Source of the DNA: an uncultured Clostridium sp.
Lineage (GTDB): Bacteria > Bacillota > Clostridia > TANB77 > CAG-508
DNA length: 32,000 bases
NCBI GenBank assembly: GCA_900556135.1
Contig: USNR01000001.1
Location: 16,485-48,484, forward strand
Direction of reading: 5' to 3'
Shown piece by piece: positions 16,314 through 30,100 of this stretch. Position 1 is the first letter of the stretch. Each line of letters opens with the position of its first letter. Both the position numbers and the translations under genes were made by a program. The notes below the pieces were generated by a model, which was not told the origin of the DNA, ran no database searches, and saw nothing but the letters and a program-made list of their open reading frames with translations.

Positions 16314-16350
16314 TATAAAAAGAATAGAGCAAACTTTTGCTCACTCTATT
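16314..16350 (-). terminator. Rho-independent terminator downstream of the small pilin-like gene
   Basis: The minus strand reads AATAGAGTGAGCAAAAGTTTGCTCTATT followed by CTTTTTATATAAAAAA. Confidence 0.5.
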
Positions 16351-16414: not shown

Positions 16415-16780
16415 CTAAATATATAAAATAGCTCTAAAACCAACATCTTCAGAGGTATCAGTAGGGTAAACCACATAGCTTCTATTTTCCTCAACATAAT
16501 TACCAGAACTTTTTATTTTGCCAAACTCAGAGTTATCAATTCCCAAAATTTTATCTATGTCACTATCAGCTGTTTCTAATTGCTCTTGCTCATTTGCACT
16601 AGCATTTGAATACTTATCTCTACTCTCGCCTGATTTTTTTATAATTCCATTATTATCTAATACCAATGTAATGCTTATTCCTGCTAATATTAATAACACA
16701 ACAATCGTTACCACAAGTGCCACTAATGTGATGCCCGAGTGTCTTCTTTCCTTTTTTAAAATTTTACATTTGTTTTTCAT
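16415..16780 (-). CDS. Small (121 aa) pilin-like N-terminal helix protein
   Basis: MKNKCKILKKERRHSGITLVALVVTIVVLLILAGISITL is paralogous to the N-termini of the 4654-6105 and 28105-28956 proteins. The ATG at 16780 has a GGAG RBS. The track start at 16858 lies inside the conserved non-coding leader. Confidence 0.75.
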   Translation of the reverse strand: MKNKCKILKKERRHSGITLVALVVTIVVLLILAGISITLVLDNNGIIKKSGESRDKYSNASANEQEQLETADSDIDKILGIDNSEFGKIKSSGNYVEENRSYVVYPTDTSEDVGFRAILYI

Positions 16781-16826
16781 ACTAAATTTTTCTCCTTTTT
16801 TATATTTCTCCTTTTTAATATACTCA

Positions 16827-16970
16827 CTAGCGCATTTGCTAATAAATATGAGACACAATTAGGGATTGAAATTTTCTCTTAACTATGAACCCACGTCTTT
16901 AACGTAGGACGATAAGGGAAATTTCTTTTCCTAATTTGGAACATATTATTAGTCAAAATGAGCGGTTGTC
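16827..16970 (-). repeat. Long-hairpin element, copy C2 (core 16860-16933), part of the 5' leader of the small pilin-like gene
   Basis: The minus strand reads GACAACCGCTCATTTTGACTAATAATATG...TAGGAAAAGAAATTTCC...TAAAGACGTGGG...TCATAGTTAAGAGAAAATTTCAATCCCTAATTG...CATATTTATTAG..ATGCGCTAG. It is homologous to 29046-29189 (same strand) and to 17400-17546 (opposite strand). Confidence 0.8.
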
Positions 16971-17060
16971 CTTCGCATTATTTTCTAATTTAATGCTCTA
17001 GTTTCAATGTTTACAAGCATTTCAAAATTTGGTATTAAGTATATTTTTGTTCATACTGAA

Positions 17061-17089
17061 AGTATAGCAATAAACTGCGAAAAAATCAA
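17061..17089 (-). promoter_or_regulatory. Sigma-A type promoter of the small pilin-like gene leader
   Basis: The minus strand reads TTGATT-N17-TATACT with TGC immediately upstream of the -10 (extended -10). Hexamers and spacing are identical to 29283-29311. Confidence 0.6.
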
Positions 17090-17399
17090 CATTTGAAAAC
17101 AAAAAGTTTTAAACAAATTATAAGAAAAATATTTTTTATAAGTCATTAAAAATTACTAGGAATGTTAGAATGTCACGGATATATACTAATAAAAAAAGAA
17201 TGCCAGATTTTCTTAAGTAATATACTTAATTCAAAAATAATTTTTATGTAACCAAATTTTATTTTATCTTGCTTAAATTCTATAACAAACCGTTTTATTT
17301 TTCAAGTCATTTTATCCTCAAATTTTAATTAAAGTAAAAATGAAAGTAATTTTCTATCACAAATTAAGGTCTATAATTTTTGTCAATTATTTTTCTTCT

Positions 17400-17546
17400 G
17401 ACATCCGCTCATTTTGCATAATAAAATGATGTAAATCAGGGAACCCAGAAATTTTCCTTCTGCAACTATGATAAAGACAAATGCTCATAGTTAAGAGAAA
17501 ATTTCAATCCCTAATTGTACATCATTTTTATTATGCCATGCGCTAG
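17400..17546 (+). repeat. Long-hairpin element, copy C3 (core 17437-17513), orphan copy in inverted orientation relative to C2
   Basis: GACATCCGCTCATTTTGCATAATAAAATGATGTAAATCAGGGAACCCAGAAATTTTCCTTCTGCAACTATGATAAAGACAAATGCTCATAGTTAAGAGAAAATTTCAATCCCTAATTGTACATCATTTTTATTATGCCATGCGCTAG. The outer stem GCATAATAAAATGATGTA / TACATCATTTTTATTATGC is nearly perfect. Confidence 0.8.
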
Positions 17547-17672
17547 AAAGAAGTATTTCATTTTTTCATTAATCTAAAATACTGGACGTCCTTCGTATAA
17601 AATTATAAAATAGTCTTACTTTCTTTCTAACAATTTTTGTTCACTTTTTAACTATATCATTTTACTTATTCA

Positions 17673-18986
17673 TTACTTCAAACTAACATACTCTTTGTAA
17701 TTAATATCTTTTTTTCTATACTCCTCTGGTTTCAATCCTACTCTTGTTTTCATAAACTTTAATATAGCAAACATTGCCAATGTAAAAATTCCGCCAAACA
17801 AAATAACAGATGTTTTCAAATCATATTTAGAAACGATTACCGTGCCAATCAGGCCTATTAAAGTATTTCCAAGTCCAGTTACTATCCCATAAGCCGAATA
17901 CACTTTATTTACCATTTGAGTATTTGTAAAATTAGTTATATACTTTTTTATTAATACTAAATACGAACCTGAACAAATATATCTCACAACATAAGCTAAT
18001 ACAACTACAAACACCATTACTCCAAATGGAACTTTAGAAACACATATCGTTCCTGCTACCAAACACGCAATGGTATACGATATACCTATAACCGATAAAG
18101 TTTTATTCTTAAATCTTTCATGCAATTTATACTGTTGCTTTGATGCAATTCCTGCCACTAATTGCATACTAGCATATATTATTCCAATTGCGGTTGAAGA
18201 TAATTCTATTTCTTGAAGCAATCCCATTTCATATGTATTCATTACCATAATTATTCCATACATTACACCAGAAAAAATCATTAAAGCCTTTAATCTTCTA
18301 GAATGAAATATAAATGAAAAAGCAAGCTTTAAATCTTTAAAATACTCTCCATACTTTAAAGCAATCTCTTTTCCTATTTTTTCTTCCTGCTTTTTATCAT
18401 CTATCTCGCTAAATAATGACGCAACTCTTGCAGCAATTAGCAATATAATTACACATATTGTCATCGGAATATATCCATTTATCTCAAACAATATTCCAGA
18501 AACACAGGCTGAAACAGCTGATATAAAATAAAAATTGCCTAATCCCTTAGCATCAATCTTGGAAAAAATTGCCCCCTTGTTTTCTGAAGCTGGTATTGAT
18601 TTATTTAAAATTCCATTTTCAGCAACCTCTTTTATAGCAAATGAAATTCCTGATACTAAATTAGCTAATATTAATATTGTTAAATTTGTAGATAACATTA
18701 CAATTACAACTGCCAAAGCCATCATAAAATCACTTAAAACTAGACTCTTCTTACTACCTATTCTGTCTATTAATATAGTAGTTGGAATTTGAAATATAAC
18801 TTTGAATATTCCAAAAAAAGCCGTAGCTAAAACAATGTTGCCTGCTGTTAAACCTTTTATTTGTGTTAAAAAAATAAATTTAATCGCATAATAAAATAGT
18901 AAATCCGCAGTCAACATTCTATGTATTGAGTATAACTTCATATTCTGTTTTCTTTTTTCTGATAATACTTTTTCTTCTTGATTCAT
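17673..18986 (-). CDS. MFS transporter
   Basis: 437 aa with about 12 hydrophobic helices and an MFS-like loop (LIDRIGSKKSL). Confidence 0.85.
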   Translation of the reverse strand: MNQEEKVLSEKRKQNMKLYSIHRMLTADLLFYYAIKFIFLTQIKGLTAGNIVLATAFFGIFKVIFQIPTTILIDRIGSKKSLVLSDFMMALAVVIVMLSTNLTILILANLVSGISFAIKEVAENGILNKSIPASENKGAIFSKIDAKGLGNFYFISAVSACVSGILFEINGYIPMTICVIILLIAARVASLFSEIDDKKQEEKIGKEIALKYGEYFKDLKLAFSFIFHSRRLKALMIFSGVMYGIIMVMNTYEMGLLQEIELSSTAIGIIYASMQLVAGIASKQQYKLHERFKNKTLSVIGISYTIACLVAGTICVSKVPFGVMVFVVVLAYVVRYICSGSYLVLIKKYITNFTNTQMVNKVYSAYGIVTGLGNTLIGLIGTVIVSKYDLKTSVILFGGIFTLAMFAILKFMKTRVGLKPEEYRKKDINYKEYVSLK

Positions 18987-19678: not shown

Positions 19679-19814
19679 GAGTTTTATTTTATATAATAAG
19701 AAAGCTATATAACTTTCCTATTATATAAAATACCTTGCATAGAGAATTTATTTCATAAATTTTTGCACATGAACAAACTTACTGAAATTTCTAATTTTAT
19801 AGAAAAACATAAGA

Positions 19815-19847
19815 AATAAAAAAAGACTGAAAATTGAAAATTTTCAG
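19815..19847 (-). terminator. Rho-independent terminator after the M23 peptidase gene
   Basis: The minus strand reads CTGAAAATTTTCAATTTTCAG followed by TCTTTTTTTATTTC. Confidence 0.5.
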
Positions 19848-19924
19848 ATTTGTTTCAAAGGTACTGGACTTTACACTTGTGAATTTTGATTTTCCGTTTT
19901 CCTTGGCATAAAGTCCAGAAAATA

Positions 19925-23544: not shown

Positions 23545-23745
23545 TAGCAAAACTTGGCAAGTTTGCTCGATTTATGGGAAGTTTCCGACATTTTTTGCAT
23601 TTTTCATAAGAGAACAAATCTGAGATTTTCAATTTTCAGTTTTTTCCTACTATTTATGCTTTTCTATAAAATTAAAAATTTCATTAAATTTTCCGTGCAA
23701 TGTATTTTATATAATATGAAACCCTATATAATTTTCTTATTTATA

Positions 23746-28104: not shown

Positions 28105-28956
28105 CTATTTTTTGTAATTAATGTTCATAGTAGTATTTGTATAATAAGTACTATTCCACTCTTCATTCCAACCGTCTGGTTTCTTCCCTGCCATAAACGG
28201 TACATTTATAGTAATGTCTACTGAACTACCAAATGCATAAGCTCCTACTGTAACTACCTTATCTGGTATCGTTATCAATGTCAGACTACTTCCACTAAAA
28301 GCATAAGAGCCTATTTTCTCTAATTCATCTGGTATATCTATATTAGTTAAGCTAGTATTTTCATAGAAAGCTGAGCTTCCTATAGTTTTTAATGTACTGC
28401 TAAGATATACGTTTTTTACAGCCCTACATCCAGCAAAAGAATAGTCTCCAACTTCTTCTATACCGTCTGAAATAGTTATTTTTGTAACAGTTTTATTACC
28501 ACTGAACCAACTTGCGCTTCCTCCTATGTGAACTGTTTCTCCATTATGTGGCAATATATTTTTACCTTCTATTCTTTTTACTGCTACTCCATTTATATAA
28601 TTTGGAATAACAATTTCTGTTTCGGTACCTTTATATTGCGTTATTACTAACTCCCCATTATCTTCTGTTTCACAGGCCCAATCACTTGGATTTTCAGGCT
28701 CCACAACCTCTATTGTTTTTCCGTGACTCTCTATCCAATCATTTGCTTCTTTCATACCATTTTGTTCATTTACTTTTGCTTGTCCATATTTTTCTCTACT
28801 CTCTTCAGCTTTTGCTACTATTCCATTATTTTGTAAAATTAAATTAATACTCACCCCTGCCAATATCATTAAAATAACTATTGTAACCACAAGAGCCACT
28901 AAAGTTATACCTTTTTCCTTCCTTACTTTCTTAAAAATTTTGCATTTGTATTCCAT
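28105..28956 (-). CDS. Pilin-like N-terminal helix + BspA-type leucine-rich-repeat surface protein
   Basis: The N-terminus is MEYKCKIFKKVRKEKGITLVALVVTIVILMILAGVSINL. The C-terminal part has repeats of the LRR_5/BspA type (I.IPNYINGVAVKRIEG, ITISDGIEEVGDYSFAGC, VYLSSTLKTIGSSAFYEN, IDIPDELEKIGSYAFSGS, ITIPDKVVTVGAYAFG). Confidence 0.8.
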   Translation of the reverse strand: MEYKCKIFKKVRKEKGITLVALVVTIVILMILAGVSINLILQNNGIVAKAEESREKYGQAKVNEQNGMKEANDWIESHGKTIEVVEPENPSDWACETEDNGELVITQYKGTETEIVIPNYINGVAVKRIEGKNILPHNGETVHIGGSASWFSGNKTVTKITISDGIEEVGDYSFAGCRAVKNVYLSSTLKTIGSSAFYENTSLTNIDIPDELEKIGSYAFSGSSLTLITIPDKVVTVGAYAFGSSVDITINVPFMAGKKPDGWNEEWNSTYYTNTTMNINYKK

Positions 28957-29045: not shown

Positions 29046-29189
29046 CTAGCGCATTGACTAATAAATATGAGACACAATTAGGGATTGAAATTTTCTCTTA
29101 ACTATGAGCTCACGTCTTTATCATTAGTTGCAGAAGGTAAATTTCTTTTCCTAATTTGGATCATTTTATTAGCCAAAAGAGCGGATGTC
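29046..29189 (-). repeat. Long-hairpin element, copy C4 (core 29079-29153), part of the 5' leader of the LRR pilin-like gene
   Basis: The minus strand reads GACATCCGCTCTTTTGGCTAATAAAATGATCCAAATTAGGAAAAGAAATTTACCTTCTGCAACTAATGATAAAGACGTGAGCTCATAGTTAAGAGAAAATTTCAATCCCTAATTGTGTCTCATATTTATTAGTCAATGCGCTAG. It aligns along its whole length with 17400-17546. Confidence 0.8.
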
Positions 29190-29282
29190 CTTCGCATTAT
29201 TTCATCACTAAATGTTCAAGTTCTAACGTTTCCAAGCATTCTTTTATTTGGTATTAAGTATATAACTTAAGGATTTATTGAA

Positions 29283-29311
29283 AGTATACCAATAATCTAC
29301 TGAAAAATCAA
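29283..29311 (-). promoter_or_regulatory. Sigma-A type promoter of the LRR pilin-like gene leader
   Basis: The minus strand reads TTGATT-N17-TATACT with TGG immediately upstream of the -10. Hexamers and spacing are the same as at 17061-17089, within a homologous block of about 285 bp. Confidence 0.6.
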
Positions 29312-29350: not shown

Positions 29351-30100
29351 TTACTCTACTACCCTTATTGCATCTGTGCTGTCTGTTGTATTCAAATTGT
29401 AATATGAGTTTGGAACATTTCCAACTATTATTGATTCGGCTATTAAGACTTGATTTACTATATTAGTTTTTATTGTATCATACGGCGTTAATATTGTAAC
29501 TTCCGCATTTATCTCCAAATATATTCTATGTAAAGTTTGATTAATACCTTGCGCTGAAAATTCTGATTTTAGAGTAGTCGCTACATTTCCAGTATTTGCA
29601 ATTTTCGCTTTTATTTTAGGTCCTGCTCCCGAAAAAATTTTCATTCCCAATGCACTTCCCAAATATATATTTATTTTACTATTTGAATCTTTTTCAAAGG
29701 CCTCCACTATCTTTACCGGAATATCTGAAGATATGCTATTAATCGTATTTACATTTGCTTGCAACATAACCACATTTTCTTCCTCATCTTTTACTACTGT
29801 AATAAAATCCTCATACTGATACTTATCCATAACAACTGTAGCTTGTTCATTTGCAATTTTTGTCGCTATGTTTTTAGCTTCATCCAAACACAACTCATCA
29901 ATTATTGGATTTATCGACCTTATAATAAAAGCGGCAGTAATTGCCGCAATTATCATTATTATAACTATCTTATTAAAATTTTTATTTTTTATGGGTGTTT
30001 TCTTATTTCTGTTAAAATTCCCGCCTATCAAGTATCTTTCTATATTTACTCGTGGTCTAGAATAAATTTTTGTTTCTTTTTCTTTAACCTTCATATCCAC
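29351..30100 (-). CDS. yunB: Sporulation protein YunB
   Basis: 249 aa with a basic N-terminus, one TM helix (IVIIMIIAAITAAFII) and YunB-like blocks (INPIIDELCLDEAKNIATKIAN, GAGPKIKAKI, GINQTLHRIYLEINAEVTILTP, VGNVPNSYYN). Confidence 0.8.
   Translation of the reverse strand: MDMKVKEKETKIYSRPRVNIERYLIGGNFNRNKKTPIKNKNFNKIVIIMIIAAITAAFIIRSINPIIDELCLDEAKNIATKIANEQATVVMDKYQYEDFITVVKDEEENVVMLQANVNTINSISSDIPVKIVEAFEKDSNSKINIYLGSALGMKIFSGAGPKIKAKIANTGNVATTLKSEFSAQGINQTLHRIYLEINAEVTILTPYDTIKTNIVNQVLIAESIIVGNVPNSYYNLNTTDSTDAIRVVE

Follow-up and report, generated by a model that had tools for sequence, protein, structure and literature searches.

A probable promoter inverton with 17-bp sites and a dispersed hairpin repeat at the pilin-like loci of an uncultured gut Clostridium

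The 32,000-nt stretch of DNA analysed here (the window; uncultured Clostridium sp., assembly GCA_900556135.1, contig USNR01000001.1, positions 16,485 to 48,484) contains a non-coding gap at 16781-17672, between a 121-amino-acid (aa) pilin-like open reading frame (ORF) and an MFS transporter gene. An initial annotation, made from the sequence of the window, read about 820 bp of this gap as an imperfect palindrome composed of two homologous leader units placed back to back, in which a pair of inverted repeats, C2 and C3, might recombine and exchange a consensus promoter for a defective one. Comparison with homologous loci, designated below by L numbers, suggests a different explanation. The apparent palindrome is probably a composite, in which copies of a dispersed hairpin accompany a control module that belongs to the pilin-like gene family and carries an invertible promoter; the window copy of this module would be ON and is probably frozen. 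Judged by alignment of the loci, the segment that inverts is the one between two 17-bp sites, O2 and O1, and C2 and C3 are not the inversion sites.

In the proposed arrangement, the module would consist of a conserved upstream region, O2, a promoter segment of ~170 bp, O1, and a leader, in that order. A putative site-specific recombinase, presumably encoded elsewhere, would invert the O2-O1 segment, so that the promoter points at the gene in one orientation (ON) and away from it in the other (OFF); each of the eight or more loci that share the sites would switch independently. C2 would lie in the 5′ untranslated region (UTR) of the pilin-like gene, as hairpins do at other paralogs, and C3 would be an independent orphan of a second subtype. 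The hairpins are most likely co-transcribed structural elements and may also act as recombination-prone repeats.

A probable invertible promoter segment bounded by 17-bp sites

The inversion site is a 17-nt quasi-palindrome, TTAAGTA-NNN-TACTTAA, with 7-nt arms and an asymmetric 3-nt centre. Two exact copies of the motif in inverted orientation lie 186-189 bp from each other at L012, L017, L018, and L019, where they bracket TTGATT-17-TATACT, and inverted pairs of this kind are also found at L103-L106. By consensus match, the bracketed segment of ~170 bp holds a sigma-70-type promoter of this sequence with an extended -10 element. The orientation of this promoter varies. It faces the pilin-like gene in the window and at L012, L017, L018, and L021, and it faces away from the gene at L019/L103, L104, L105, and L106.

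Two sets of alignments show that the segment between the sites has changed orientation relative to its surroundings. The flanks of L019, 120 nt on each side, are collinear with those of the window and 85-88% identical to them (88% on the left), and the whole inner 170 bp aligns only when reversed, at 76-87%. A closer comparison is provided by an orthologous locus adjacent to LeuRS in two strains (L105 and L021), where the left flanks are 98.8% identical, the right flanks 92%, and both are collinear. Identity over the inner 170 bp is 62.4% in the same orientation and 95.9% when the segment is inverted. Because the flanks are collinear and the interior matches inverted, the breakpoints fall within the 17-nt sites.

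The longer inverted repeats on which the earlier proposal relied do exist. C2 (16827-16970) and C3 (17400-17546) are inverted arms of 144-147 nt, 77.6-80% identical and 429 nt apart (repeat search and blastn, E = 1e-28), and they share one exact block of 34 nt (16855-16888 / 17485-17518). Hairpins of this kind also coincide with rearrangement junctions between strains. Nevertheless, it is very unlikely that C2 and C3 are the repeats of an inverton of ~430-600 bp that swaps a strong promoter for a defective one. The repeats of invertons are short, described as 10-40 nt (PMC11892184) or 10-20 nt (PMC5903667), whereas C2 and C3 are only 78% identical over 145 nt. The hairpin is, moreover, a dispersed repeat that occurs mostly singly or in direct tandem, without an inverted partner. 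Inversion of the C2-C3 interval, which was to be sought by comparing related strains, is not seen: the two assemblies that cover the interval agree in its orientation. No evidence was found for inversion by recombination between these arms, which have a single 34-nt exact run. It is the smaller O2-O1 segment that is seen flipped.

The two leader units of the initial annotation do not emerge from these comparisons either. Outside the hairpins, the only likeness between left and right is a residual 18-nt inverted repeat (17028-17045 / 17219-17236, 16/18). The region at 17230-17399, taken as part of a second unit, is homologous in the orientation of the gene, on the minus strand, to the region upstream of the promoter at other pilin-like loci, so that it belongs to the left unit as the upstream part of the same module and is not a leader. 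The reported match to the leader start (19/21 at 17212-17232) is the distal site O2; it holds against the leader start of C1, a paralogous module in the window, but in a base-by-base comparison falls to ~14/21 against the left unit itself, from which 10 nt are missing at that point. The TATACT described at 17182-17187 was confirmed. There is, however, no defective second promoter to swap in, and flipping would turn the one promoter away. What survives of the earlier proposal is an invertible-promoter region in front of the pilin-like gene, with the 17-bp O2 and O1 as its repeats in place of C2 and C3.

State of the window copy and of related modules

The promoter that had been placed on the minus strand at 17061-17089 was recovered as a -35 element TTGATT (17089-17084), a 17-nt spacer, and a -10 element TATACT (17066-17061) with an extended -10 TG. 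Distal site O2 is intact (Table 1). Proximal site O1 reads GAACAAA^AATATACTTAATACC in the window and GAACAAAATCCTTAAGTAATATACTTAATACC elsewhere, a 10-nt deletion that the window has in common with L003 and that is absent at all other loci. Since the inner half of O1 is deleted, the window copy is probably locked ON, with the switch apparently disabled there.

A second promoter-like match, TTGAAA-17-TAGAAT (17305-17277, minus strand), lies upstream of O2 and is conserved at L017 and L019. It could read through the invertible segment.

Module C1 lies upstream of a 283-aa pilin-like gene with a BspA-type leucine-rich repeat (LRR; LRR_5) at 28105-28956, the product of which has its N-terminus in common with the 121-aa protein. 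Homology between C1 and the window module extends through the leader and promoter (~300 nt, 81%). The distal site is absent from C1 because yunB ends at 29351, and with a proximal site only, the C1 promoter is fixed.

A further variant was observed at L005 2600-2660 (= L022), where the promoter segment is missing and a single hybrid site, TTAGGTATATTACTTAA, is found. Excision of the segment lying between O2 and O1 would be consistent with the hybrid site. The pilin-like LRR gene downstream of it looks frameshift-split, into parts of 164 aa and 118 aa.

Table 1. Features of the non-coding gap, its bordering genes, and further hairpin copies in the window
Feature	Position	Strand	Basis or remark
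Pilin-like gene, 121 aa	16415-16780	minus	ORF list
Hairpin C2, gene-linked subtype	16832-16962 (full alignment 16827-16970)	minus	Model R1 152 bits; fold z = -4.5
Leader segment, O1 to hairpin	16963-17034	minus	Conserved in gene-linked paralogs C1, L005, L011, L019
O1 remnant (proximal site)	17035-17045		Outer arm and centre; inner arm lost
Promoter segment, 167 bp, ON orientation	17046-17212	minus	Promoter scan and homologous segments at other loci
Distal site O2, intact	17213-17229		TTAAGTAATATACTTAA on plus strand; exact motif match
Conserved upstream module of pilin-like family	17230-17399	minus	Collinear with L019 left flank, 88% identical
Hairpin C3, orphan subtype	17408-17541 (full alignment 17400-17546)	plus	Model R1 140 bits; fold z = -7.5, -7.9
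MFS transporter gene	17673-18986	minus	Pfam MFS_1, E = 1.7e-26
Paralogous module C1	29051-29311	minus	Hairpin 29051-29181, site O1 29254-29270, promoter 29283-29311
Hairpin C4, truncated	2416-2551	plus	nusB-xseA spacer; model R1 78 bits

Weighing the evidence for inversion

A static explanation would make the locus the relic of an old inverted duplication of a leader unit, with one gene lost, and would make the short sites operators for a DNA-looping transcription factor. The spacing of the pairs (~187 bp) corresponds to ~18 helical turns, the sites resemble operators in being near-perfect palindromes, the window's locus is known in a single orientation, and hairpin C4 is fixed in four strains. 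This explanation nonetheless seems unlikely. The segment is found inverted with its breakpoints in the 17-nt sites, one example being a single locus compared between two strains whose left flanks are 99% identical, and for this reason an operator role alone is insufficient. Nor is C3 a decayed leader copy, as the relic fallback of the initial annotation would have it; it belongs to a distinct orphan subtype of the dispersed repeat, a subtype also represented at other loci, and no copy in the window is better paired.

Misassembly of repeats in metagenome-assembled genomes (MAGs) is another possible source of both the back-to-back layout and the differences in orientation. The difference among the window, L001, and L003 comes down to a join within a 61-nt stretch of shared sequence, and Logan contigs from SRR1761702, with 100% identity to the window, are interrupted at 16867 and 17569. 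However, an artefact is highly improbable as an account of the whole, given that the C3-module-C2 layout is identical in an independent assembly (L003, 99.9% over 8.1 kb) and that the flipped segment is present in contigs of several assemblies. In addition, a 170-bp inversion bounded by 17-nt repeats cannot come from k-mer graph confusion at the usual k.

Inverton recombinases are often encoded elsewhere in the genome, and sometimes one master recombinase serves many loci (PMC11892184, PMC5903667). A Pfam scan of the 27 window proteins detected no integrase, invertase, transposase, or recombinase. One regular-expression search for a serine-recombinase motif, covering the window and loci L001-L022, gave no match; tyrosine recombinases in the loci were not searched for.

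Several points weigh against interpretation of the module as an active switch beside a co-transcribed hairpin. The orientation evidence comes from assembled contigs, between strains and paralogs, and not from reads, and the window's own locus is seen in one orientation only, in two assemblies. Most reversed copies are in one gene subfamily, and a few old inversions could explain part of the pattern. The 32-kb window has no recombinase gene by Pfam. A looping regulator might use the paired sites as operators, in addition to or in place of recombination, and the second promoter-like match at 17305-17277 could complicate a simple ON/OFF logic. The junction between MFS and the 121-aa pilin-like gene lies in a 61-nt stretch shared by two loci, where an assembly chimera is possible. 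Finally, the better fold of the antisense strand of the hairpin, by ~11 kcal/mol, fits poorly with a simple role as a sense 5′-UTR RNA.

A lineage-specific dispersed hairpin repeat

The hairpin is a lineage-specific dispersed repeat of 131-145 nt, previously undescribed and absent from Rfam. Four copies of the ~145-nt unit are found in the window by blastn and covariance model R1, so that C2 and C3, first described as one pair, are two of a larger set that also includes the hairpins of C1 and C4. Both C2 and C3 are themselves long imperfect hairpins that fold better than shuffled sequences (z -4.5 to -7.9). C2 is located in the predicted 5′ UTR of the 121-aa pilin-like gene, and its plus strand folds better. 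C3 ends ~130 nt beyond the stop codon of the convergently placed MFS gene, folds better on its minus strand, and carries a GGGAACCC insertion and an ATGTA/TACAT stem; its subtype is common to L014, L015, L016, and L021. C4 is antisense to the nusB-xseA operon, with several of its substitutions clustered in the apical loop. Retention of C4 with an identical truncation in four strains, with no empty site (a single site was tested), gives no sign of recent mobility.

Beyond the window, at least 17 copies are present in contigs of the same species. The invariant core of the hairpin has 13 exact matches on 12 contigs of one metagenome, OIYO01. A stretch of 1.5 kb in one OIYO01 contig shows 100% identity to a contig of GCA_902476995.1, other contigs of which match the window at 99.5-99.9%, and these hairpin copies therefore belong to the window's own species. 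An argument from cross-species conservation of the arms was dropped once L103 showed that the OIYO01 contigs derive from the same organism as the window's close relative. The core has 0 matches in species-representative genomes and in viral contigs. Across 80 pilin-like loci of other species (gut Clostridia MAGs), no blastn similarity to the hairpin was found, and the covariance model gave no credible copy (one marginal match, 28 bits, E = 0.015), which indicates that the hairpin is lineage-restricted and argues against a leader RNA common to the whole gene family.

Paralogous pilin-like genes carry about half of the copies in their 5′ leaders. The others, like C3, are orphans at assorted intergenic spots, several of them just behind the stop codon of a convergently oriented gene. 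Housekeeping genes surround the dispersed copies, which occur in both orientations. At L018 461-952, three units form a direct tandem (period 170, 89% matches) between the invertible promoter module and the pilin-like gene.

Alignment of 17-21 copies displays near-invariant arms and a hypervariable apical loop of ~16 nt. Two stem subtypes can be distinguished by compensatory differences, and C3, C4, and most orphans are of the second. The strand antisense to the pilin genes folds better in 20/20 copies, with a mean difference of 11 kcal/mol. RNAalifold gives a consensus energy of -27.1 kcal/mol for the antisense strand versus -10.9 kcal/mol for the other, and G-U/G-C toggles pair only on the antisense strand. 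The ends of the hairpin read GAC[AG]TCCGCTC ... ATGCGCTAG, and no target-site duplication is evident at them in the alignment of copies.

Several identities proposed for the hairpin were rejected. A known RNA family is not supported by Rfam 15, which has no match at the gathering threshold anywhere in the window; at permissive settings, 16700-17700 yielded only weak generic microRNA-precursor hairpin matches (E >= 0.17), taken as chance. By inspection, a small ORF in the loop is not conserved among copies. An intrinsic terminator would require a T-run, and none follows the hairpin on either strand. The hairpin ends also lack the RYYYAAC / GTTRRRY boxes of an integron attC site (inspection), and there is no integrase in the window.

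Attempts to find analogous hairpins in other species gave little separation from controls. With a minimum-free-energy domain metric, the controls scored alike. A palindrome self-alignment metric gave a weak enrichment of 28% versus 5%; its controls are partly coding, and the hairpins of the window itself receive too low a score from it.

A second, unrelated dispersed repeat of ~170 nt, with several small hairpins, was observed at window positions 19682-19854 and 23611-23691 and at L001 2672-2845 and 7134-7300. Its copies are 80-85% identical, have no Rfam match, and fold weakly (z -1.6, -2.4).

Strain-level junctions within hairpins

In GCA_902476995.1, the MFS gene and the gene for the 121-aa pilin-like protein are on different contigs. 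In a base-level alignment, the promoter, leader, and 5′ arm of C2 in the window correspond to the MFS-side locus, and the sequence from that arm on corresponds to the pilin locus. These two reference loci share both hairpin arms and differ in loop and leader. The crossover between the window and L001/L003 is placed within the 5′ arm of C2, at ~16902-16962. The junction inside C2 represents a crossover or possibly an assembly join within a 61-nt stretch that the two loci share.

Comparable junctions are seen between other strains. That between L104 and L020 is inside the hairpin, in its 5′ arm, and that between L105 and L021 is inside the hairpin just past the loop. Strain-level rearrangement junctions inside hairpins thus number three, including the one in C2.

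A more speculative role for the hairpins can be drawn from these positions. The hairpins may fold into strand-specific recombination sites that separate an "expression site", namely the invertible promoter module, from pilin-like gene cassettes that can be exchanged, so that the organism would combine promoter inversion with cassette swapping in a dispersed system resembling an integron or shufflon. The three junctions, the near-invariant arms around a hypervariable loop, the strand-biased pairing with its toggles and compensatory changes, and the direct tandem array of three units make this role compatible with the data, yet it seems decidedly unlikely. Co-transcribed structural elements remain the preferred interpretation of the hairpins.

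Relation to known systems

The findings describe a probable new multi-locus promoter inverton of a known class and a new lineage-specific palindromic repeat. The closest counterparts of the inverton are the Mpi-controlled polysaccharide promoters of Bacteroides fragilis and the RecV-controlled cwpV, flgB, and cmrRST switches of C. difficile. These systems likewise have short inverted repeats around a promoter segment of a few hundred bp or less upstream of genes for surface structures, the same repeat at many loci, and both orientations found in nature. Use of the same repeat at many loci implies one trans-acting recombinase, which need not be encoded nearby (PMC5903667). The present system differs from them in several respects. 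Its recombinase is putative, and its proposed switching is deduced from comparison of contigs, not from within one population. Each site is an almost perfect 17-bp palindrome with its polarity set by a 3-nt centre, and the window copy has a crippled proximal site. Its targets are an expanded type-IV-pilin-like family with BspA-type LRR tails in an uncultured sporulating gut Clostridium.

The fimS element of E. coli, inverted by FimB/FimE to control type 1 fimbriae, offers a functional parallel, since there too an invertible promoter switches a pilus or adhesin gene ON or OFF. That system has a single locus, 9-bp repeats, and recombinase genes next to the switch, whereas here many loci have 17-bp palindromic sites, and the Pfam scan of the window found no adjacent recombinase.

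The hairpin resembles the ERIC/IRU elements of enterobacteria, the Correia elements of Neisseria, and the RUP and BOX elements of pneumococcus, which are imperfect palindromes of 100-150 nt with many intergenic copies in both orientations, often co-transcribed with their neighbours and prone to recombination. For the hairpin, no signature of terminal repeats or target duplication was seen, nor an empty site at the single position compared. Unlike these elements, it is strongly tied to the leaders of one gene family, forms direct tandem arrays, has near-invariant arms around its hypervariable ~16-nt loop, and finds no match in Rfam. With integron attC sites it has in common an imperfect palindrome of comparable length, a variable centre, a better-folding strand, and a position at boundaries where cassettes differ between strains. 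In contrast to attC sites, the hairpins are dispersed instead of arrayed beside an integrase, and they lie upstream, not downstream, of the gene.

Genes and neighbourhood

The gap between the pilin-like and MFS genes, first given as ~890 bp, measures 892 nt. The MFS gene is a neighbour outside the switch. The 121-aa protein has an N-terminus like a class III signal (K..GITLVALVVTIVVLLILAG) and scores 18.3 bits against Pfam N_methyl, under the cutoff of 21.2. It is part of a large paralogous family with more than 1500 homologous clusters. Homologs of its N-terminus, 72 aa long, sit within type IV pilus operons at L007-L010. These operons also hold a prepilin peptidase (A24) and a T2SSE ATPase, which supports a true type IV pilin ancestry for the family.

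Just 3′ of the pilin-like gene, before a P-type ATPase gene, the minus strand of the window has an intrinsic-terminator-like hairpin and T-run (16323-16350). The window as a whole contains housekeeping and sporulation genes. Plus-strand GC skew is about -0.3 along its whole length, indicating that the minus strand is the leading strand and that all genes are co-oriented with replication.

Other gut Clostridia MAGs (L023-L102) each encode at least 8-13 paralogs of the pilin-like family, a heavy expansion. Conserved upstream regions of 200-460 nt, unrelated in sequence, are common to some of the paralogs in several of the MAGs that were checked, and some of these regions hold palindromes of their own. 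A search for flipped segments among the pilin-like paralogs of these other species' MAGs detected none.

Biological significance

The hairpin also has a practical bearing, as a dispersed hairpin beside much shorter real sites could mislead inversion detectors based on ranking long inverted repeats. Its conserved arms, its variable loop, and its overlap with rearrangement junctions make it worth experimental study. The 17-bp site, being defined, could be used to seek the presumed master recombinase and to score phase states in metagenomes.

Invertons have a reported median of 3 per Clostridia-like genome (PMC11892184). If the O2/O1 switch is active, this uncultured sporulating gut Clostridium would control an expanded family of pilin-like LRR surface proteins through many copies of one promoter inverton, a parallel to the capsule promoter system of Bacteroides in a group with few reported invertons.

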